In this document: positions 34,319-46,673 of the stretch, in pieces
How positions within the stretch are numbered: position 1 is the first letter of the stretch
Layout: every line of letters starts with the position of its first letter
DNA from: Sphaerochaetaceae bacterium
Lineage (GTDB): Bacteria > Spirochaetota > Spirochaetia > Sphaerochaetales > Sphaerochaetaceae
NCBI GenBank assembly: GCA_052170175.1
Contig: JBQNBA010000001.1
Span: forward strand, 1 to 61,733
Length of the DNA stretch: 61,733 bases
Direction of reading: 5' to 3'
Made by a program: the position numbers and the translations under genes
Notes under the pieces: model-generated
The model's database searches: none
Told to the model about the DNA's origin: nothing
The model's input: the letters and a program-made list of their open reading frames with translations, nothing else

Positions 34319-34568
34319 TGGGATGCTGCCTTTGTGTTTGATTCTCCAGTCACATGGACTGTTTGATTTCAATTCCATCATCGTCCCGGCTATCCGGGCA
34401 AGACCCCCATTCGTTGGAGCAAATCCGACATGGGGTTTGTTTCGCCGTTTGTTTCGCCGCCATGCTTTCGGAGTCCTCAAGGTTGAAAAACTTGACCTTA
34501 TGATTTACAATATATTTTGGTTCTTTGATTTGCAAAGTCAAGAAAATCATAAATATATGGAGTGTGTT

Positions 34569-37500
34569 ATGGGTAACAAGAAAATGGTTACAATCGATGG
34601 CAATACAGCGGCCGCTCATGTGGCATATGCTTTCAGTGAAGTCGCTGCTATTTACCCGATCACCCCTTCTTCTCCTATGGGTGAGTATGCTGATTCCTGG
34701 GCAAGCGTCGGGAGGGTCAACATGTGGGGCAAGAAGGTCGACATCATGGAAATGCAGTCGGAGGCAGGGGCCGCCGGGGCTGTTCACGGCTCTCTTGCAG
34801 CAGGAGCCATGACGACTACCTTCACTGCATCTCAGGGGCTTCTTCTCATGATTCCGAATATGCACAAAATCGCCGGCGAGATGCTTCCGACTGTCTTCCA
34901 TGTCTCCGCAAGATCTCTGGCGGCCCAGTCGCTCTCAATCTTCGGCGATCATTCGGATGTCATGTCTTGCCGCAACACCGGGTTTGCAATGACGGCCGCC
35001 TCCAGCATTCAGGAGACAATGGACATGGCGCTTGTCGCCCATCTTTCCACTCTGAAATCATCAGTTCCATTCCTTGCGTTCTTTGACGGTTTCAGAACAT
35101 CGCATGAAATCCAGAAGGTCGAGGAAATCCCCTACGAGGACATGAAGAGCCTCATCGAGCCGCAGTATATCGAGAAATTCAGAGAACGCGCCCAGCGTCC
35201 TGACAAGCCTATGATAAAGGTTGCGGCGCAGAACGAAGACGTGTATTTCCAAGGGAGAGAGACTGTCAACAAGTACTACGATGAGCTTCCGGCCATCGTT
35301 CAGGATTACATGGACAAGGTCGCCAAGCTCACCGGCAGGCAGTATCACCTGTTTGACTATTTCGGAGCCGCCGATGCCACCGATGTCGTCATTGTGATGG
35401 GAAGCGGCGCTGATACATTCGAATGGGTTGTCAAATATCTCAACGCAAAGGGCGCCAAGGTCGGCGTTCTGAAAGTTCACCTCTACAGACCGTTCAGCGC
35501 AAAGCATTTTGTCGCCGCATTGCCCAAAAGCGTGAAGAGAATCGCCGTGATGGACAGGACAAAGGAGCCTGGCTCAATCGGAGAGCCGCTGTACCTTGAT
35601 GTGGTGGCCGCCCTTGACCAGATGAAGGTTGAAGGCATCAAGGTCATCGGAGGCCGCTTCGGGCTTTCCAGCAAGGATTTCCCGCCTTCGCACGCAAAAG
35701 CAGTGTTTGACCATCTGGCAGCTGACGGATTCAATGGCTTCACAGTCGGAATCAACGATGATGTCACCCACAAGTCAATTCCCGTGAAGGACAAGATTGA
35801 CGTCATCCCGCAGGGAGTCATCTCCTGCATGTTCTGGGGTCTTGGCTCCGATGGCACAGTTGGTGCGAACAAGAACTCCATCAAAATCATCGGTGACAAC
35901 ACCGATCAGAATGCACAGGCTTATTTCGCCTATGACTCCAAGAAGTCCGGCGGCATAACAATCAGCCATCTCCGCTTCGGGAAAGGCTCTCTGGATATGC
36001 CATGGCTCATCGATGCGGCTGACTTCGTAGCTTGCCACAATCCGGCTTACATAGGCCGCTATGATATGCTCGGTCCGCTTAAGGAGGGCGGCATCTTCCT
36101 GCTCAACAGCCAGATTCCGTCAGACGAGGTGTTCTACCATCTCACGGCAAAGGAGCAGCAGGAGATAATCGACAAGAAGATAAGATTCTTCAACATCGAT
36201 GCGCTGAGCATTGCGAACAAGGTCGGCCTTGGGGCCAGAATCAACACTGTGATGCAGGCCGCATTCTTCAAGATTTCCAAGGTTCTGCCTGAGAGCGAGG
36301 CTATCGCCCTCATCAAGAAGTACATTCAGAAGACATTCGCCAAGAAAGGCGAAGCTGTCGTCAACATGAACTGGGCGGCGGTGGATGAAGCATCGGCGGC
36401 TCTTCATGAGGTCGTTATTCCTTCCAAGGTTGATCCTAAGAAGGCTTTCGTTCCCAAGAAGCTCATAAGCGATGACGCTTCTGATTTCGCAAAGAACATA
36501 ATGCTGCCGATAATGCACCTTAAGGGAAACGACATCCCGGTGTCCGCCATGAGCATTGACGGAACGTTGCCGAGCGCAACAGCGAAGCTTGAGAAGCGCG
36601 GCGTCGCTCCGTTCGTTCCAGCATGGGACAGCACAAAGTGCATCCAGTGCAACCAGTGCGTGCAGGCTTGTCCGCATGCCGCCATCAGAGCGAAGCAGAT
36701 TGATCCGGCCGACCTCAAGGGCGCGCCTGATAACTTCACGACTCTCAAATCCACGACAAAGAACACGAAGGATCTTAAGTTCAGGATTCAGGTGTTCGCC
36801 GAGGACTGCATGGGCTGCGGAGTCTGCGTTGAGACATGTCCTGCAAAGGAGAAGGCTCTCAGCCTTGTTCCGTTAACGGATGCAATCTCCAGCGGTGCGG
36901 TTGAGGCTGCCAGCTTCTTTGAGAAGCTTCCTGAGAATGTTCTGGACGGCGCTCCCGAGACCACGGTCAAGGGGCTGCAGTTCAAGCAGCCGCTGTTTGA
37001 GTTCTCAGGCGCCTGCGCCGGCTGCGGCGAGACTCCGTATGTGAAGATGGTCACCCAGATCTGCGGCGAAAGGATGCTTGTCGCCAACGCCACCGGCTGC
37101 TCGTCAATCTACTCCGGAACTTTCCCATCGATTCCTTACTGCAAGAGACCTGACGGCCGCGGGCCGGCATGGGGCAACAGCCTGTTTGAGGATAACGCCG
37201 AATACGGGCTTGGCATGAGGCTTGCTGTGGATAACAACAGGACGCTGCTCAGAATGAAGGTCGAGCGGCTGTTGGAGCTTGGAACAACCGATGAGCTGTC
37301 TGCCGCGCTCAAGAAGAACCTTGAGCTGTGGGATGACACCACCGAGGCTTCAATCGATGCCCAGAAGGCCACCCAGAAGGTCCTGGATGGACTTTGCCCC
37401 TGCAGCCTCGAAGGAGAGCAGAAGGAGCTTCTGTCCAAGATAAAGGAGCTCAAGGACTACTTCACCGACAAATCGGTGTGGATAATAGGCGGTGACGGAT

Positions 37501-38108
37501 GGGCGTATGACATCGGTTACGGCGGCGTTGACCATGTGGTTGCATCCGGAAAGGATGTCAACATTCTGGTTCTGGACACCGAGGTCTACTCCAACACCGG
37601 CGGACAGGCTTCCAAGTCCACTCCGCTCGGAGCGGTCGCGAAGTTCGCCAATTCCGGCAAGCAGATTGGAAAGAAGAACATGGGATTCATGTGCATGAGC
37701 TATGGCTATGTCTACGTTGCTTCCATTGCGATGGGCTCCAACAGACAGCATGCGCAGAAGGCCTTGCAGGAAGCTGTGGCCTACAAGGGGCCGTCCATCG
37801 TCTTCTGCTATGCGCCTTGCATCAACCATGGACTTAACATGAGGTTCAGCCAGGTCGAGGAGAAGAAGGCTGTTGAAGCCGGCTACTGGCCGTTGTATCG
37901 CTACAATCCTCTGTTGGAAGAGGGCAAGCGGTTCAGCTGGGATACAAAGGAGCCGACAGCGGATTATCAGGAATTCATCAAGGGTGAAATCCGGTACTCC
38001 TCGCTGTACAAGACCAATCCCGCCAACGCTGATGAGCTGTTTGCCAAGGCAGAATCTGATGCGAAGCGCAGGATGGCCTTCTACAAGAATGTCGGTCAGG
38101 TCATGTAG
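34569..38108 (+). CDS. nifJ: Pyruvate:ferredoxin (flavodoxin) oxidoreductase, single-polypeptide type
   Basis: About 1179 aa. N-terminus [34 protein letters not shown], two ferredoxin CxxCxxCxxxCP motifs ([24 protein letters not shown]), and the TPP region [10 protein letters not shown]. Start at ATG 34569. Confidence 0.9.
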   Translation: [1179 protein letters not shown]

Positions 38109-38261
38109 GCCGGTTGCCGGCTTGATGCCATGCTGGACATCATAGGCTTGGTCGGGCGGTGGGCTTGCTGTCCTGACCGGGCTGCTATGAGCTTGGCTGA
38201 GGTATGATGCTTATGGCTATATGAAGCTTAAGCCGACCAATTTAAAGACCAAGCAGGGTCG

Positions 38262-39373
38262 CTATTAGGTAATTTGTTCCCGCCTTTTTCTGTAAGAGTT
38301 AGTTACAATTTTACGCCAAGGGTGATAAGGAGCAGGTTTCCACTTAGGTTTCTCGGTTTTTGGCGGTTGACGGGTAAGTTCTTCAATTTGTGTTTCTGTG
38401 ATTTCAGCATCTTTTGTTTCGTAGAACTTGCCATCGTAAATGGCAACTACGGTTTTATCAAATGTGAGATAAACATATAAATGTTCTTTAGGACTGATTC
38501 TGATGGTTTTGTTATTTGAGTCCTTCAGTTGAAGCTTTTTTCCAAGGAACTTAAAAGAAGAACCAAGGTCAGCTTTTCTATGGTAGAGAACAGAAAGGCA
38601 GTAATTGATTTCTTCTTCTATGGACTTGTGTTTATCTGGAATTTTTCTGTTTCAAAGATAGTTCTGTTATCTGAATGGAAACTTTCAGGAATCCCATATT
38701 CTAAAAGAATTTGTTTAAGCATGTTGTAATAGCCTTTCAGAGTTTCTTCCTTGTCAAAGTGCAAACCCATTGCAGTTCCGGTAGAATCATCAATAGCTTC
38801 ATGTAAAGCTGCTTTGGGATAATCAGGGCCAAACCATGGATGAAGAGAAGCATCTATTTGCAGCATCTCTCCAAGATTCTCTTTTCTTGGACGCAAAGGG
38901 TGAATATCTGCTTTCTTCTTTCTGTGCTGTTTCCTAGGTGATTTGAAGCCGGCTTCTGTAAGGATTCTGTAAAGGGAGCCGTATGTAATCCTGATGTTTT
39001 CATCTTCAACCAGTTTCTCCAAAAAGTGACTGAAATTAAAGCCGGCATATTTACCGGAATAGAGCTCGACTATTGTCTGCTCCAAAGCTGGATTTGTTTT
39101 CCAGGCTCTCTGTTTTCCCGTGTTGCCATGCTTGAAGCAATTCATCCCTGTTTCTTGATATTTGACTTTTAGCTTATTTGCATAACGTTTCGAAATTCCG
39201 AGTTGCATTGCTGCTTGTTTTGAGCTGATGGTTCCCTTTATTGCTCTTTTGATTATTCCTTCTACAAAACCATTTGAAAAATTCTTCATGTTTTTACCCC
39301 AAATAGAAGAATTATCAAAAATCAGGTGGGAACAATTAACCTAATAACTATGTGGGAACAAATAAACTAATAA
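38262..39373 (-). mobile_element. Decayed ISNCY-like insertion sequence (about 1.1 kb) with imperfect terminal inverted repeats
   Basis: The left end CTATTAGGTAATTTGTTCCC (38262-38281) matches the reverse complement of the right ends GGGAACAATTAACCTAATA (39329-39347) and GGGAACAAATAAACTAATA (39355-39373). The right IR is present twice in tandem. Confidence 0.6.
38265..39289 (-). pseudogene. ISNCY-family-like (HTH plus rve/DDE) transposase, frameshifted and internally shortened
   Basis: Residues 1-223 show an N-terminal HTH, FKHGNTGKQ, LQIDASLHPWF, AIDDSTG and GIPESFHSDNRTIFE. Reading then stops at 38618 and continues for about 115 codons in the +1 frame (switch near an A5 run) to the TAA at 38265. 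The region expected to carry the catalytic Glu appears to be missing. Confidence 0.6.
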
Positions 39374-39394
39374 CCACACCTGTTAGAATAGCAG

Positions 39395-39422
39395 TTGACA
39401 AATAAGAAATATCAGTTAGGAT
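39395..39422 (+). promoter_or_regulatory. Near-consensus sigma70 promoter TTGACA-N16-TAGGAT in front of the peptide/radical SAM operon
   Basis: TTGACA at 39395-39400 and TAGGAT at 39417-39422, about 37 nt before the small-ORF ATG. Confidence 0.45.
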
Positions 39423-39458
39423 AATAATATAAATAGTTTAGAAAAAGGGGCGGCAAGA

Positions 39459-39584
39459 ATGGTTTTAGTTAACGAAGCGTTAGTGTTTCCAAATACGGAA
39501 TTAGTTGACAATCCGCCGGAAGGTCTGATGTGCTTGGATGCCTGCAAGTGTATCGGGGATGATTTCTGTGAAATATGTTTATAA
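39459..39584 (+). CDS. Candidate RiPP precursor peptide, 41 aa, Cys-rich C-terminus (not in the ORF track)
   Basis: Manual translation gives MVLVNEALVFPNTELVDNPPEGLMCLDACKCIGDDFCEICL. SD AAAGGGG lies 8 nt upstream. The ORF is immediately 5' of a radical SAM/SPASM gene. Confidence 0.55.
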   Translation: MVLVNEALVFPNTELVDNPPEGLMCLDACKCIGDDFCEICL

Positions 39585-39628
39585 TCATCCAGTTTCAGCT
39601 CATTGCAAATTTATAGGGTGGAACTGTT

Positions 39629-40905
39629 TTGCTTAAGGAAAGCATATACAATAATGTTATTATAGATAATCACCAAACTTACATTTATAACTCTTTAACC
39701 AAGGCACGTATTTTACTTGAAAACGAGGAGGAATTCTCAAAAATAATTACCGATATAAAAGAGGGGAATGCAATTGGTTCAGCTTGTTTTAAAGAGCTTC
39801 AAATGCTTATTGATAATGGATTTCTTGTTGAGGATAGTATTGATGAACAAGAGGTCTTAAAGTATATCTTTTATAAACGTTTTTTTGAATCGGATAAGTT
39901 TGGACTAATATTAATGCCAACATTAAGGTGTAATTTTAATTGTCCTTACTGTTTTGAGAAATCAAGCAAGAACCTTATTTTTGAAGAGAATAGCGATTAT
40001 TTCGAGGTAATTTATAGATTTATTGCCAAAACATTCAAAGGTATAGACATTGTCATTTGAATTTTTTTGGAGGAGAACCTTTATTGCAAAAGAATCAGAT
40101 ATCCGGCTTTGCGTTAAAGTTCACTAGACTTGCTCAAGATGCCAAGTTGTCTTTTGATTCATCAATGGTTACTAATGGTTCCTTGATAGATGAAGGAGTG
40201 ATTCAGACATTAAAAATTTTAAATACTCGATTATTACAAGTTACAATTGATGGTGGTAAAGTACAGCACGATCAAACACGTTGTTATATGAATGGAGAGC
40301 CTTCGTTTGACCTAATAATTGCAAAAATAATCCAAGTTGTGCGGGCTATGGACAAAGACGGAATATGTTTTCTTATCCGATTCAATCTTAACAGTTCTTC
40401 CATTGATGAAGTGGAAAGCAGTCTAAACGTTATTCCATCGTCACTTCGAAGAAGGATTCATGTTATGTTTCGCCCAATCTTTAGTACTCCGCTATACCAT
40501 GTTAATAATAAAACCACTTATGATGATCTTGATGGTTTTAATTCAGTAGCAAGTGAAATGGGTTTTTTAATCTACAAGAACAAAAGAATGTTTCTTTCGT
40601 GCGAAGCTTGTGGAGATAAAAACTTCTTTCATGTGTTACCAGACCTTTCTCTATGGAAATGTATCAATGACTTTTCATTTCAAGAAGCCAGGATAGGGCA
40701 GATGCTGAAGGATGGTTCTATAAAATGGAATGTTCAACGGATAAACAACTGGTTCAAAAATGCAGATTTTTTTAACGACGAAAAATGTAAAGGTTGTTCT
40801 GTCGCCCCTGATTGTCTTGGGGGATGCATCAGGCAATATGCCATAACAAAAAAACGGCGCTGTGGTTCTTGCAAATCTTTATCTTCAGCATATAAATATA
40901 GATGA
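39629..40905 (+). pseudogene. Radical SAM/SPASM peptide-modifying enzyme (sactisynthase/ranthipeptide-synthase-like), split by a 1-nt frameshift at about 40056
   Basis: ORF1 (39629..40060) has an RRE-like N-terminus followed by CNFNCPYC (Cx3Cx2C). ORF2 (40057..40905) begins at FFGGEPLL and carries VTNGSL, VTIDG and Cys-rich SPASM blocks (CEACGD...WKC, CKGCSVAPDCLGGC). The two frames join if one T is added to the ttt at 40056-40058. Confidence 0.75.
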
Positions 40906-42614
40906 ACACTTGCATTCCGCATAAAGAGACCTTGATCATTCCGCTGGCTATATCGGCCATTTCGAGTGCTCTGGGAACGCTTCTTATTCTTGCAAGAAGC
41001 AGGATGATAGATTATGCAATAGCCAAGAGCAGTTCTCTGTTCATGTCAGCGCTTGTCTTTGTCGGCATGCTTCTGGCGATAAGCCTCTTGAACATCATTT
41101 CAGATCATAGACTTGAATCCTTGTGTTTGAAGGAAGGGAGAAAGCTGGATGATGGGAGAATGCGACACTGTTCAAGACTCCCATATTCATATCTCCAATC
41201 CACTGCTTTCGCTCAATTGAATGACCATGCATCTCAAGCCCAAGAGCTGGATTCCACTGTCAAGAAAAGGCTTGCTTCCTTGGTCAAGGATTCTGTTCTT
41301 CTTTTTTCAAGCCTCATCTTGGTTGCGACAATCAGTCCAATATCAGCAGCCGCAATGCTTCTTGCAATTAGCTTGGAATTGCTTGTAAACAAGATTTTGA
41401 TTAAAAAAACCGGAGGGCTTTGGGTTGATTATCGCAAGAATATCCTTAAGGCTGACTACTTGTCTTCAATGCTCCTCGATAGGGATTTCTCACAGGAAAG
41501 AAAGATTTTTGGATACAATGAGGAGATTGAAACCAGATTTAAAAAGGAATGGAAAGAAGGAAATGCCAAGAACACTCGTCTAGGGTTTTTAAGACTAAGC
41601 CTGGAGAGCCTGTCAAGCATCATTGATGCAGCATTTGCAGTGCTATTGCTCGTCCTTATGCTGCCCTCATTGATTAACAACAGCATAACCCTTGGCTTAT
41701 ACATCTCATTCTTCACTGCTTCTCTTTCTATGCTCAAAGCCAATGAGCGGCTTCTTGGCGCAATTCATGACTACGCCGCCTCAAAGGAGAAGATGGCCTC
41801 TTATGGCTTATTGATGAATGTCGCAGAAGAGAATGACCCGGATTCTGGAATAGTGCTGGAGAACTTTGAGAACCTGGAGTTCTCTCATGTTTCTTTTGCC
41901 TATCCAGAGGCAGACAAGCCGGCTTTAAACGATGTCTCATTTATTATGGAGAAAGGGAAAGGCTATGCGCTTGTAGGAGAGAATGGCAGTGGGAAAACAA
42001 CAATTGTCAAGCTTATGCTTGGGCTTTTCTCGCCATCAAGCGGACAGATCAGAATCAATGGGCGCGACCTGGCTTCATATTCCATCAATAGTATAAGGAA
42101 GGCTTTCGGCGTAGTCTTTCAAGACTTCTTTGCTTATCCCTTGACCATCAGAGAAAACATCACAGCGGGCAAAAACCTTGAGGAAGAGGACGTTCAAAGC
42201 GTTGTAGCCGCTCTTGATTTAACAAGCCAGATTCAGCGATTGTCTCTGGGGCTGGATACCAGCATGATGTTTCTGAAGGAAGGTAGCACCTGCTTGTCAA
42301 AGGGTCAATTGCAGAAGCTGGCAATAGCAAGATGCATTCTTTCCGAGTGTTCCTTGGCCATTCTTGATGAACCCAACAGCTCTCTGGATCCAATCATTGA
42401 GGCAGCTGTGTTCGAGGCCTATAGAGGAATGCTGAATGAAAGGGCAAGCCTTTTCATTTCCCATAGGCTAGGCTTTGTACGCATGGCAAAGAATATTCTT
42501 GTCTTAAAGGAAGGAAGGATCATTGCATCCGGTGATCATGAAGGGCTTATGCGAGAGTGTCCATACTACAATGAGATGTTCTCTAAGCAGAAGGCGCAAT
42601 ATGAGAAGGAATGA
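40902..42614 (+). CDS. ABC exporter, fused permease/ATPase (570 aa)
   Basis: N-terminal 6-TM-type domain, Walker A GENGSGKTT, signature LSKGQLQKLAIAR, Walker B AILDEP. No N-terminal C39 peptidase domain. Its ATG overlaps the radical SAM stop (ATGA). Confidence 0.85.
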   Translation: MNTCIPHKETLIIPLAISAISSALGTLLILARSRMIDYAIAKSSSLFMSALVFVGMLLAISLLNIISDHRLESLCLKEGRKLDDGRMRHCSRLPYSYLQSTAFAQLNDHASQAQELDSTVKKRLASLVKDSVLLFSSLILVATISPISAAAMLLAISLELLVNKILIKKTGGLWVDYRKNILKADYLSSMLLDRDFSQERKIFGYNEEIETRFKKEWKEGNAKNTRLGFLRLSLESLSSIIDAAFAVLLLVLMLPSLINNSITLGLYISFFTASLSMLKANERLLGAIHDYAASKEKMASYGLLMNVAEENDPDSGIVLENFENLEFSHVSFAYPEADKPALNDVSFIMEKGKGYALVGENGSGKTTIVKLMLGLFSPSSGQIRINGRDLASYSINSIRKAFGVVFQDFFAYPLTIRENITAGKNLEEEDVQSVVAALDLTSQIQRLSLGLDTSMMFLKEGSTCLSKGQLQKLAIARCILSECSLAILDEPNSSLDPIIEAAVFEAYRGMLNERASLFISHRLGFVRMAKNILVLKEGRIIASGDHEGLMRECPYYNEMFSKQKAQYEKE

Positions 42615-44346
42615 AACAGCCAGTGCGGTCTATGCTCTCAAGATTGCCTTTGCTTTCTGCCCGGGCGCCATTTCACTGATGCTTGTAGCAGGCTTGATGG
42701 AATGTGCTCTGGCTTCAATAGGGATTTTCCTGACAAGGAGTCTTTTTGAGGCTATCAGCATGATTGCTTCAAAGAGAGCTGGCTTAAACCAATATGCCAG
42801 CTTGTTCATCCTGTATGGCGTCTGGCTTATAGCTTCAGCCTCTGCTTCATTCTTGTTCAATCGCTTTATTGTTCAGTTCAGGCTGCTTCCCGAATTTGAA
42901 GCGAGGATGCTCAGGAAGCTTCATGACAAAGCCCAGAGGATACCTAATGAAGCTCTTCAATCACCTTCGGCTCTTCTGCTTATCAGGCAGGCCAAGACAT
43001 CAAGGCAAGTTGTCTTCAGATACGCACAGATATGCGTTAATATCTTGGTAGGAGTGCTTCAGGCCATTGCCATCACAGCTTCGGCCAGCGTCTTCTCGCC
43101 TTGGTTCATTCTTTTTTTGCCACTGGCGCTGCTGTCGGCTTTCATTGAAGGCTTTCAGGAAAGCAAGTTGCTGAAGAAGAACTTGATGATGATTGCCCAA
43201 TGCAAAAAGGAAGAAAGCGAGTATGAGAAAAGCCTCTTTGATGAATCTGCTTCCAAAGAGACAAAAGCATGTGGCTTGACAAGCTTGATTTTGCAGAAAT
43301 GGGGCTTGAGCAGAGAGAAGAGATATGAGACTGAGAATGCTCATAATCGCATGAAGAGCAGGCTCAAGCTACTTATGATGCCATTGCAAGTGCTTGGATC
43401 CAGTGCAGGGCTGCTGCTGGGAGTCCTGCTACTTGGCAGAGGAAGCATTGATTTTGCCTCGTTCACTGCATGTGTGACTGCCTTTTCCAGCATTGTTGCC
43501 AGCTATCGCCAAGTGCTGCAGATGTCGGTCAATCAGCGCCAGTATCTTATCATGCTCAAGCCTTTCCTGGATTATTGGAATCTAGAGGAGAGAGAGCAGG
43601 ATTCACACGATTGCGCAATAAGCCCTGCAGTCAAGATTCAGAATGTCAGCTTCGCTTATCCGGGTCAAGACAGCTTTGCCTTGAAGAATATCAACCTTGA
43701 GATTCCGAAAGGTTCAATAATAGCCATTGTTGGAGCCAATGGATCTGGCAAGACCACCTTGGCTCAGATAGCATTAGGTCTTTTCCGACCAACAAAGGGA
43801 GCTGTTTGCTTCGGACAGCATTGCGCCTCTGATCTCGGAGAAAGAAACATACACAGAAAACAATCCATTGTAAGCCAGGATTTCTGCAAATATAGGCTTA
43901 GCGTTGAGGATAATATCCGCCTTGGTGATATAAGAAGCGACAAGCCCATAGGAGAGGGCGATATTCAGCAGATGCTTGGCATCTCCATAACCAAGGGGAC
44001 GTTGCTTGGCAAGCAGCTTGGAGGCACAGATCTCTCGCAAGGTCAGTGGCAAAGGCTTTCATGTGCCAGAGGATTCTACAAGGATGCCGATTTCATCGCC
44101 ATGGATGAACCTACAAGCTCTATAGACCCTTTCGAGGAGAGAAGGCTTCTTGACAGCTTCTCCCAAGCTCTCAATGGTCGTACTGGTCTTATAATCACCC
44201 ATCGCCTTGCCCTGGCAAGGCTTGCTGACAGAATAATTGTGCTTGATGAAGGGCAGATAGTCGAAAGCGGCTCTCATGAGGAGCTTCTCAGCCAAGAAGG
44301 CCTGTACAACAGGATGTGGAAGAATCAGGCAGAGCTGTATGACTGA
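42601..44346 (+). CDS. ABC exporter, fused permease/ATPase (581 aa)
   Basis: Walker A GANGSGKTT, signature LSQGQWQRLSCAR, Walker B IAMDEP. Start at ATG 42601, overlapping the previous gene by 14 nt. Confidence 0.85.
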   Translation: MRRNETASAVYALKIAFAFCPGAISLMLVAGLMECALASIGIFLTRSLFEAISMIASKRAGLNQYASLFILYGVWLIASASASFLFNRFIVQFRLLPEFEARMLRKLHDKAQRIPNEALQSPSALLLIRQAKTSRQVVFRYAQICVNILVGVLQAIAITASASVFSPWFILFLPLALLSAFIEGFQESKLLKKNLMMIAQCKKEESEYEKSLFDESASKETKACGLTSLILQKWGLSREKRYETENAHNRMKSRLKLLMMPLQVLGSSAGLLLGVLLLGRGSIDFASFTACVTAFSSIVASYRQVLQMSVNQRQYLIMLKPFLDYWNLEEREQDSHDCAISPAVKIQNVSFAYPGQDSFALKNINLEIPKGSIIAIVGANGSGKTTLAQIALGLFRPTKGAVCFGQHCASDLGERNIHRKQSIVSQDFCKYRLSVEDNIRLGDIRSDKPIGEGDIQQMLGISITKGTLLGKQLGGTDLSQGQWQRLSCARGFYKDADFIAMDEPTSSIDPFEERRLLDSFSQALNGRTGLIITHRLALARLADRIIVLDEGQIVESGSHEELLSQEGLYNRMWKNQAELYD

Positions 44347-45237
44347 CAGAATGTTTCTAATCGGGGTGCATCTTCTTATCAATGTAGGTTCCAGAAGATT
44401 TGTCTATAATTCTAAGACTGGAACTATTTATGAAGTTGATACGTTGACTTGGGAAATCATTAAGTTTGCTGAAAACAATGGGGGTTTTTTTGACTCCAAT
44501 AAAAGGACAATGATAAAGCAACCCATGATTTGCATAGAAAATTCAAGAATGGTTGTGGAACATACGAGCAAGTTATAAAAGGACTAAAATCAATATTTCT
44601 TTTATCGCCAACAATCCGCTCTACCGTTACTCCTTATTTGTTGAATATAAGAAAGCCATTAATATCGTCAGTTCCCTTTTTTATTGACTTCACTTATGAA
44701 CTGTTCTTGCAAAAAAACTTAATTCCACAAATAAAACAGTTGTTATTTCAAATGTTGGGTATATTTTGCGACGATCTCTACAAAGGTTGTTATGTTGTGT
44801 GTAAAGAGAACCTAACGGTATATCAAGTTATTAAGCGTTATGCTTTTTTTCATAATAGACAATTTTTTTGTGATTCAATGCTGCATGGGATAGCGGTTGA
44901 TAAAGATGGACTTTTTTATCCATGCCATCGATTTTGTACTAATCGCTCTTTTAACATCGGAAATATTCATAGCGGGTTAGATGAAAAAAAGGTCATTGAC
45001 TTTTTATCCGTTATCAGTATTCAAAATAACGACACATGTAACGTTTGCTGGGCTCAGAATATTTGTGGAGGGTTTTGCCCATATGTTAATTTCTCTCTAT
45101 TTGGTAATTATCAAAAGCGAAACTATGAGCTTTGTGGCGTTTTTAAAGATTTTTATCAAGAAGTATTAAAATTATTTCTTTCATTAACTGATCAAGAAAA
45201 AATTGCTCTGGGATTGACACATAATATCAAAACTTGA
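44339..45237 (+). pseudogene. Second radical SAM/SPASM maturase, remnant lacking the Cx3Cx2C core
   Basis: Frame a (44339..44578) has an RRE/PqqD-like N-terminus (FVYNSKTGTIYEVDTLTWEIIKF). Frame b (open from 44503) starts mid-domain (THDLHRKFKNGCGTYEQVIKGLK) and ends in a SPASM domain (DGLFYPCHRF, CNVCWAQNICGGFCPY). No CxxxCxxC motif occurs in either frame. Confidence 0.6.
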
Positions 45238-45260
45238 AAACAATAGGGCAGGATTGGTTT

Positions 45261-46673
45261 TCAGAACCCTTTCGCTTCCCAGACTTGAAGCTGCTTCTCC
45301 ACGCTGGTCTTGGACGGGCCGCCCTCCGATGTGCGTCTGCCAAGGCAGTTGTCCAAGTCGATTGCTGTGAAAATATCGTTCTCAAACAGCCCGGAGAAGG
45401 TCTTGTAATCGTCAAGCGACATCGTTTCCAGCGTCTTGCCGTTTTTGATGGCCCAGCTGATGATTTCGCCGGTCAGCTTATAGGCTTCCCGGAACGGCAG
45501 CCCCTTGGCGCACAGGTAGTCGGCGCAGTCCGTGGCGTTTATGAAGCCTGTTGAGGCGGCGATGCGCATCGCAGTCTTGTTGACCGTCATGGTGGTTATC
45601 ATCGGAGCGAAGAGAGAGAGGCAATGCTTGACCGTGTCGATGCTGTCAAACAATGCTTCCTTGTCCTCCTGCATATCCTTGTTGTATGCAAGCGGAAGAC
45701 CCTTCATGGTTGTCAGGATTCCTATCAGATTTCCATAGACCCGGCCTGTCTTGCCGCGCACAAGCTCTGCCATGTCGGGGTTCTTCTTCTGGGGCATTAT
45801 GGATGAGCCTGTGCAGAATGCATCGTCAAAGGTTATGAAGCCGAATTCTGATGAGCAGTGGAGGATTATCTCTTCGCTCATCCGGGAAAGGTGCATCTGA
45901 ACCATGGATAGGGCGTAGCAGGCATCGGCAACGAAATCCCTGTCGGATACCGCATCGATGCTGTTGGGGATGATTGATGAGAACCCAAGCTGGGCGGCCG
46001 TCATCCTGCGGTCAATCGGGAACGAGGTTCCGGCAAGGGCCGCTGCTCCCAAAGGGGAGGAATCAGCGCTTTCCCGGGCGTTTTGCAGTCGTTTCATATC
46101 TCGCTCAAACATTCCGGCATAGGCGAGCAGGTAATGGGCGTACGTAACCGGCTGGGCCCGTTGAAGGTGCGTGTAGCCCGGCATGAGAGCATCTGTGCTG
46201 GCTCTGGCCTTGTCCACTATCGCCGAGATGAGCGATTTCAGCAGGGCCTCTGTCTCCTCAAGCTGGCCTTTCACGTGCATCCGCAGGTCAAGGGCGACCT
46301 GATCGTTGCGTGAGCGGGCGGTGTGAAGGCGCTTTGCAGGATTGCCGATTCTGCTGCCCATTTCGATTTCGATGAACGAATGGATGTCCTCGCTTGTCCG
46401 GTCGATTTCAAGCTTGCCGGAATCAATGTCGGATTTGATTGATCTCAGTGCCTTGATTATTGATTCTGCTTCGTTTTCTGGAATTATTCCTTGCTTTGCG
46501 AGCATCGTTGCATGGGCGATGGAACCGGCGATGTCCTCTTTGTACAGTCTGCTGTCAAAGGCTATGGAGCGATTGAAGGCATCGGCTTCCTTGTCGAGCG
46601 GCTTTGAGAATCTCCCCTCCCACAGCTTTGCCGACTTTGCCTTTGGCGCCTTGGCTCCTGGCTTCTTAGGCAT
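45261..46673 (-). CDS. argH: Argininosuccinate lyase
   Basis: LWEGRF N-terminus and the fumarate-lyase signature [12 protein letters not shown]. Confidence 0.9.

Follow-up and report, generated by a model that had tools for sequence, protein, structure and literature searches.

The unannotated 41-codon open reading frame (ORF) at 39459-39584 of the window, i.e., of the whole 61,733-nucleotide stretch of Sphaerochaetaceae DNA analysed here, is very probably the precursor gene of a peptide synthesised by ribosomes and then modified post-translationally (RiPP), which would be matured by the mechanism proposed below and which belongs to a decaying low-GC cluster. Our confidence is high that this is a true precursor gene, and low to moderate for the specific cross-links, which are proposed by analogy. 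The gene and its signals are:

39459-39584, plus strand: gene of the precursor peptide (41 aa and a stop codon), ATG start, read in the sequence; product MVLVNEALVFPNTELVDNPPEGLMCLDACKCIGDDFCEICL
39459-39530, plus strand: leader, approximately residues 1-24; M-x-L-[IV]-N-x-A is conserved at its N-terminus
39531-39581, plus strand: core, residues 25-41, CLDACKCIGDDFCEICL, the Cys-rich C-terminal part
39444-39450, plus strand: Shine-Dalgarno-like AAAGGGG, read directly, with the ATG 8 nt further on
39395-39422, plus strand: promoter-like TTGACA-16-TAGGAT, 10 of 12 consensus matches

The first-pass annotation of this DNA had given the ORF an ATG, a Shine-Dalgarno sequence at 8 nt and a distance of 44 nt to the radical SAM gene, which starts with TTG at 39629 and is called rSAM1 here. 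All of this is read as claimed, as are the five cysteines (C25, C29, C31, C37 and C40) within the final 17 residues. The proposed arrangement, in which a peptide with its leader at the N-terminus and a Cys-rich core at the C-terminus goes with a radical SAM/SPASM maturase, recurs in homologous clusters. A single-sequence search against 5.8 billion proteins returned four relatives of the window peptide (E 2e-18 to 2e-8), all of which occur in the same gene context. None of the four equals the window peptide, so the exact product has apparently not been called in the sources, and the ORF was rightly described as unannotated. The sequence EGLMCLDACKCIGDD is identical in all four close relatives and the whole 17-residue EGLMCLDACKCIGDDFC in three of them; the variable parts are the mid-leader and the C-terminal tail. 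Since the core is identical where rSAM1 shares only 54-55% and the ABC proteins 35-38% identity with the window, the peptide core is the best-conserved element of the cluster. Absence of the ORF from syntenic loci, which had been named as the observation that speaks against a precursor, was checked for, and the opposite was found: conservation of the peptide exceeds that of the enzymes. The gene order peptide, rSAM (approximately 424 aa), ABC, ABC, rSAM (approximately 450 aa) is shared by the related loci L002, L007 and L021. Nearly all loci inspected have an LDACxC peptide immediately upstream of their rSAM1 homologue; in L031, the upstream peptide is encoded on the opposite strand.

A 14-peptide profile retrieved 79 proteins, which together with the window peptide give 80 sequences with DACxC. 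The deeply conserved element of this family is L26-D27-A28-C29-x-C31 in window numbering. The invariance of DACxC across the 80 peptides is partly an effect of ascertainment, because both the word index and the regular expression select for it. Independent support for LDACxC conservation, at the level of sequence, comes from the loci that were found via the enzyme (L021, L025 and L028-L031), each of which carries an LDACxC small ORF at the rSAM1 homologue. Two subtypes predominate. The first, which includes the window peptide, follows (C)LDACxC-[T/I]-x-D/P-[D/E]-x-C; the second follows xLDAC[T/K]CTGNC, and its peptides often end one residue further on. C25 is found in 52 of the 80 peptides, and D35 is confined to the first subtype. 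The pair C31-x3-D35 is kept as C-x3-[D/E] in 25 of the 80, i.e., in the subfamily of the window, and is absent from 53 TGNC-type members; the window peptide carries a single site of this kind, not repeated. The pattern C-x3-C-x-C-x5-C-x2-C, which had been proposed as a search signature, does not hold up: besides the limited distribution of C25 and D35, C40 is missing in the closest relative L112, which has the tail TIDL.

One subtype-one peptide (P0135) was seen on 320 contigs; the index of the sequence collection lists its maturase in 406 blocks, many of them from human gut samples. No Pfam or NCBIfam model matches any of 11 family peptides (the window peptide and ten relatives), and for the window peptide no NCBIfam model, that for SCIFF included, gave a match even at E values up to 10. 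A full-text search of the searchable literature retrieved no paper with LDACxC-type core motifs. When species-representative genomes were scanned with an rSAM1 alignment, only distant enzymes (at most 27% identity) were obtained, with no LDACxC peptide nearby and no syntenic relatives. An rSAM1-based metagenome scan gave 80 loci, of which only L029-L031 are close and the remainder belong to other SPASM families. The LDACxC peptides are widespread and form an apparently undescribed peptide family. The unannotated ORF thus becomes the entry point to a defined family of approximately 80 distinct database peptides, and the LDACxC signature, which is covered by neither curated models nor searchable papers, offers genome miners a fresh handle.

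Downstream of rSAM1, the window encodes a two-subunit ABC exporter; further genes adjoin the cluster in its relatives:

40902-42614, plus strand: ABC exporter subunit 1 (ABC1), 570 aa, with a transmembrane domain and an ATPase and lacking a C39 peptidase domain
42601-44346, plus strand: ABC exporter subunit 2 (ABC2), no C39 domain; ORF open from 42523
L026 7283-8305 and L113 9054-9977: HExxH (GHELTH) protein, 307-340 aa, after the maturase; no Pfam or NCBIfam match
L002 7887-9680, L001 15080-16900, L021 3637-5442 and L007 8897-10174: HTH/TPR-like regulator

ABC1 can be aligned over its whole length with its counterparts in L002 and L007, with approximately 36% identity. The start of ABC2 is likely the ATG at 42601; this subunit aligns with ABC2 of L002 from residue 35 onward (approximately 38% identity). 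No Gly-Gly motif occurs in the window peptide, and a domain search found no match to Peptidase_C39 on either ABC protein. Both statements had been made before and both hold, so that the window cluster shows neither mark of the double-glycine/C39-exporter type. A possible leader peptidase, judged from its sequence, is the GHELTH protein of L026 and L113. The loci that carry it have peptides without a Cys before LDAC, i.e., of a different subfamily, and the window has no counterpart. As a separate observation, L114 (7001-10491) combines a peptide ending in SCLDACTCTGNCE with a pair of radical SAM genes and a kinase of the APH family, and has no ABC exporter.

A hairpin between a precursor gene and the gene downstream is a usual way to over-produce the precursor transcript. 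Strong hairpins followed by a U-run lie between peptide gene and maturase in L001 (10181-10240, z = -5.2) and L005 (10133-10180, z = -4.5) and resemble leaky terminators; there is none after the peptide gene in the window (z = -0.1) or in L021.

In the Clostridia-like relatives L001-L004, L007 and L021/L029, the cluster is adjoined by an HTH_3 protein of 597-606 aa with a weak, sub-threshold TPR match, and a paralogue of this regulator (63% identical) takes the place of the second maturase, rSAM2, in L001, L003 and L004. Both observations would suit a peptide that serves as a cell-to-cell signal sensed via the HTH/TPR regulator, instead of as an antimicrobial, and that is made by the same RiPP biosynthesis. 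Streptococcal radical-SAM RiPP clusters are indeed under quorum-sensing control (PMC9389541). Yet the regulator is absent from the window, L028 and L110, and a regulator in the neighbourhood does not reveal what a product does. We therefore consider the signal role rather unlikely; the assignment of the ORF as a RiPP precursor gene is the same under either role.

The family-defining maturase is encoded directly downstream of the peptide gene:

39629-40905, plus strand: rSAM1, radical SAM/SPASM maturase, disrupted; ORFs 39629-40060 and 40057-40905

In the protein, residues 101-108 form the CxxxCxxC motif and the SPASM motif Cx2Cx5Cx3C is complete; it has 477 homologues at E values up to 1e-20. 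Curated models were scored with the repaired window protein and with the intact L002 enzyme. The best score of the repaired rSAM1 was 174 bits against TIGR04463 (cut-off 525); the two proteins scored 148-160 bits against CefB (NF038107, cut-off 600) and 146-172 bits against Clo7bot (TIGR04334, cut-off 600). With 146-174 bits against cut-offs of 525-600, rSAM1 is a member of none of these three families, and as it stays under all named-family cut-offs, no characterised orthologue anchors its reaction. An AlphaFold model (pLDDT 88, pTM 0.86) has an N-terminal beta-sheet/helix domain of the RRE type. The best fold match among solved structures, over the full length, is CteB (PDB 5WGG, TM 0.66), the SCIFF maturase that forms thioethers in its precursor CteA. 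CteB is also the best PDB sequence match (E 4e-24). As modelled, rSAM1 combines RRE, radical SAM and SPASM parts in the way CteB does, and leader binding is predicted.

By comparison with L112 and L002, the window copy of rSAM1 has suffered a 1-nt deletion near 40026-40030 (gccaa-aac), past which the true frame (NIQRYRHCHLNFFGGEPLL) runs on in that of the ORF at 40057. A lesion at the TGA at 40058 was also considered and is ruled out by the L112 comparison, which sets the lesion approximately 30 nt upstream. Nine residues are incorrect in the rSAM1 sequence that was used for the alignment and the AlphaFold model, which leaves the conclusions unaffected. No X-XXY-YYZ slippery site was found at the lesion, and programmed -1 frameshifting was rejected. 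The NCBI annotation shows at this place only a 273-aa SPASM fragment (P0005). The frameshift could be an assembly error in a metagenome-assembled genome. Related loci are broken at nearly the same place:

Window 40015-40070: 1-nt deletion, approximately codon 133
L112 680-710: T7 to T6 in Phe-Phe codons
L116 880-910: T7 to T6 in Phe-Phe codons, independent of L112
L001 and L004 (L001 10630-10645): A7 to A8; L002 is intact
L110 and L111 (L110 4170-4178): in-frame TAA, codon 131

These are five independent lesions, all within codons 127-146 (approximately) of 424, and the peptide gene is intact each time. Three of the breaks occur at A7/T7 homopolymers and one is the in-frame TAA. The clustering may reflect a mutational hot spot, a selected truncation or an ascertainment effect. 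On a rival reading, the cluster of this genome and of several relatives does not simply decay, and breaks that recur between CxxxCxxC and GGEP would turn off or split the maturase deliberately: either the homopolymer tracts would act as an on/off switch, or a stand-alone N-terminal leader-binding fragment would be made together with a re-initiated catalytic fragment. The concentration of the five lesions points this way, as do the recurrence of several of them across independent assemblies, the sparing of the other homopolymers of at least 7 bases in the same genes, and, in the window, a TTG at 40057 that overlaps the TGA of the upstream rSAM1 piece. The omega of 0.21 for the N-terminal part of rSAM1 (window versus L112) fits as well; it indicates that selection acted on the enzyme through most of the divergence and that its loss is recent. 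On the other hand, classical phase variation would call for longer tracts than 7-8 nt, slippage does not explain two of the five lesions, rSAM1 is deleted altogether in L003, and P0120 may be broken elsewhere, at approximately codon 325. No functional split within a radical SAM barrel is known, L112 lacks a good restart codon ahead of the GGEP motif, and the sample is small and was partly gathered by following fragment matches. A deliberate switch or split is thus quite improbable, and we prefer to read the window copy as an enzyme in decay.

The peptide gene itself has been held to its protein sequence. Relative to L112, at 88% nucleotide identity, the core of the window peptide shows four synonymous and no non-synonymous changes, and omega for the whole peptide is 0.12, compared with the above value for rSAM1. 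Across lineages, the invariant residues are spelled with varied codons: five for Leu, four for Ala and two to four for Cys, Asp and Gly. Purine-rich AGG/GGA boxes stand at the place of the window Shine-Dalgarno sequence in L001, L005 and L021. Of the claim that the gene has its own promoter, the TTGACA-16-TAGGAT match itself stands, and its TTGACA box is retained in L112; such matches are not enriched in the AT-rich stretch (2 found, 1.9 expected from shuffles), and a promoter of the peptide gene is thus merely plausible. A terminator-like match inside the ORF (39524-39557) was taken as chance. The notion that an open frame arose by chance in AT-rich intergenic DNA, to which a length of only 41 codons, the surrounding 30-40% GC, the promoter-like match at background level and the missing annotation in the source record might lend themselves, is already refuted on comparative grounds, i.e., by homologues in every related cluster, a core unchanged where all nucleotide changes are synonymous, the E values against 5.8 billion proteins and the conserved ribosome-binding site, and its probability is practically nil. 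These comparisons demonstrate a real gene that is under protein-level purifying selection and obligatorily linked to rSAM1 homologues.

The second maturase of the window is reduced to a remnant:

44346-45237, plus strand: rSAM2 remnant, PapB-like radical SAM/SPASM; an N-terminal stretch of approximately 45 aa and a C-terminal part of 235 aa, in different frames

Approximately 160 codons are deleted, the CxxxCxxC cluster motif among them, and a tblastn search of the window with the intact L002 enzyme recovered only residues 213-448. The C-terminal part of the remnant matches positions 129-328 of the PapB model with 105 bits. Intact second maturases (L002, L021 and L110) are closest to PapB (NF047865) at 251-302 bits, under the cut-off of 340; rSAM2 of L007 is a homologue with 62% identity. 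Of seven loci with a Cys directly before LDAC in their peptide, six have a second radical SAM gene, versus none of four loci without this Cys. The association is suggestive, but the set of 11 loci is small and lacks phylogenetic independence. The second radical SAM enzyme of L114 is not PapB-like and belongs to another lineage. The PapB-like enzyme is absent in L028 and most TGNC-type loci, with the exception of L110, where it occurs together with a peptide that has no C-x3-D/E at the corresponding site. The C-x3-[D/E] site alone was also tried as a predictor of the PapB-like enzyme and fails on L110 and L028. The earlier idea of a ranthipeptide-like linkage from Cys to Asp gains indirect support: the PapB-like enzyme of intact relatives and the C-x3-[D/E] of 25 of the 80 peptides speak for it, while the scores below 340 and the L110 exception do not.

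The whole cluster is set in an island of foreign appearance:

38108-45261: low-GC island of approximately 7 kb, between the pyruvate:ferredoxin oxidoreductase gene and argH
38618-39289, minus strand: truncated transposase of the ISNCY family (223 aa), matching positions 2-202 of the 368 in the model with 207 bits (cut-off 250)

The GC content is 32-46% in the island and 51-57% in the flanks (pyruvate:ferredoxin oxidoreductase and argininosuccinate genes), and the transposase fragment lies at the left edge. Within the island, the ABC genes have 46% GC versus 32-34% in the radical SAM genes, which hints at a mosaic origin. In relatives, the cluster is found in an unrelated chromosomal context. 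An LDACKCTGNC-type cluster of Roseburia hominis (L113, CP159990.1, 3145119-3159277) is located directly beside a TraG/T4SS coupling protein and ArdC, and its gene neighbourhood suggests carriage on an integrative conjugative element. Low GC, transposase fragment, broken enzymes, unrelated contexts and the conjugation neighbour together argue for horizontal acquisition followed by decay. Since rSAM1 is frameshifted and rSAM2 a deletion remnant, the peptide is probably not matured in the window genome; with the adjacent maturase being broken, it may be a relic without current function. For this genome, we thus see a horizontally acquired cluster in mid-decay. The first-pass annotation overlooked the rSAM1 split, the rSAM2 remnant, the transposase fragment and the island. 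At the left border, the pyruvate:ferredoxin oxidoreductase ORF (1261 aa, 34323-38108) as listed has approximately 80 codons ahead of the conserved N-terminus (MGNKKMVTIDG), and its real start is probably an internal ATG.

For intact members of the family, we propose a route in four steps, in which substrate relationship, thioether chemistry and the order of steps are taken from the enzyme class and the closest structural relative. The leader of approximately 24 residues, with M-x-L-[IV]-N-x-A, would be bound by the N-terminal RRE-like domain of rSAM1. The enzyme would then act on the LDACxC core, most likely forming a thioether from a Cys thiol to a carbon of a nearby residue, with Asp27 as the best candidate acceptor. 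In the subfamily with a Cys before LDAC, the second maturase would add a further cross-link; in the window type this enzyme is PapB-like, and C31-x3-D35 would be a plausible Cys-Asp site. Finally, the heterodimeric ABC exporter, which has no peptidase domain, would secrete the product. A more far-reaching combination is improbable: that LDACxC peptides form a widespread human-gut RiPP class with a so far undescribed type or topology of cross-link, for instance a compact cage on the invariant Asp-x-Cys-x-Cys, and that at the same time the rSAM1 breaks at one 20-codon spot are a selected switch or split and not random decay. The core, which goes down to 11 residues, would make a small test substrate for the TIGR04463/CefB/Clo7bot-like branch of radical SAM/SPASM enzymes.

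Several known systems resemble the window cluster in part. In sactipeptides, the donor cysteines of the hairpin are N-terminal and the acceptors C-terminal. This layout is not matched, because the conserved Asp comes before the conserved Cys pair in LDACxC. Judged by its sequences, the window system stays outside the sactipeptides; an alpha-carbon linkage would be chemically possible. The similarity to thuricin CD and ruminococcin C lies in the cluster content, i.e., two radical SAM/SPASM enzymes and ABC transport with small Cys-containing precursors, as two-maturase sactipeptide clusters are described in PMC12093266 and PMC10470295. The differences are a single precursor gene in the window cluster and, for ruminococcin C, a RumMC model score of only 36-43 bits against rSAM1 (cut-off 720). 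StsB and GggB were not among the top model matches for rSAM1.

Freyrasin contains Cys-Asp beta-thioethers in repeated C-x3-D motifs, with six repeats. The window system resembles the PapA-PapB pair of freyrasin in that the second maturase of intact relatives best matches PapB (NF047865), with a remnant in the window, and in that C31-x3-D35 is retained as C-x3-[D/E] in the window's subfamily. PapB was reported to join Cys to Asp or Glu (PMC9413430). Assignment to freyrasin is opposed by PapB-model scores that all lie below 340 (remnant 105, intact relatives 251-302) and by one C-x3-D site in the window peptide versus six repeats. The roles of the enzymes differ as well: the PapB-like enzyme is accessory here and its window copy non-functional, and rSAM1 is the family-defining enzyme.

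Among curated families, TIGR04463, CefB and Clo7bot come closest to rSAM1, with matches along its full length, and each of them goes together with very short Cys-rich peptides. We know of no determined product structure for any of these families. The window system differs from them in an rSAM1 far under the equivalog cut-offs and in a peptide that matches no NCBIfam model. The SCIFF/thermocellin systems share with it a short Cys-rich precursor directly upstream of an RRE + radical SAM + SPASM maturase of approximately 420-450 aa. They are set apart by the score of rSAM1, which reaches only 61-77 bits against TIGR03974 (cut-off 425) and so stays outside that family, by the LDACxC core in place of the six-Cys SCIFF pattern, and by the two ABC proteins, often with a second maturase, of window-type clusters. 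What the window system has in full are the general marks of a radical SAM/SPASM RiPP precursor: a co-oriented adjacent small ORF, purifying selection and a maturase with RRE, CxxxCxxC and SPASM parts. It works like the known radical SAM/SPASM thioether RiPPs, and its peptides are an apparently undescribed family, not a new kind of system.
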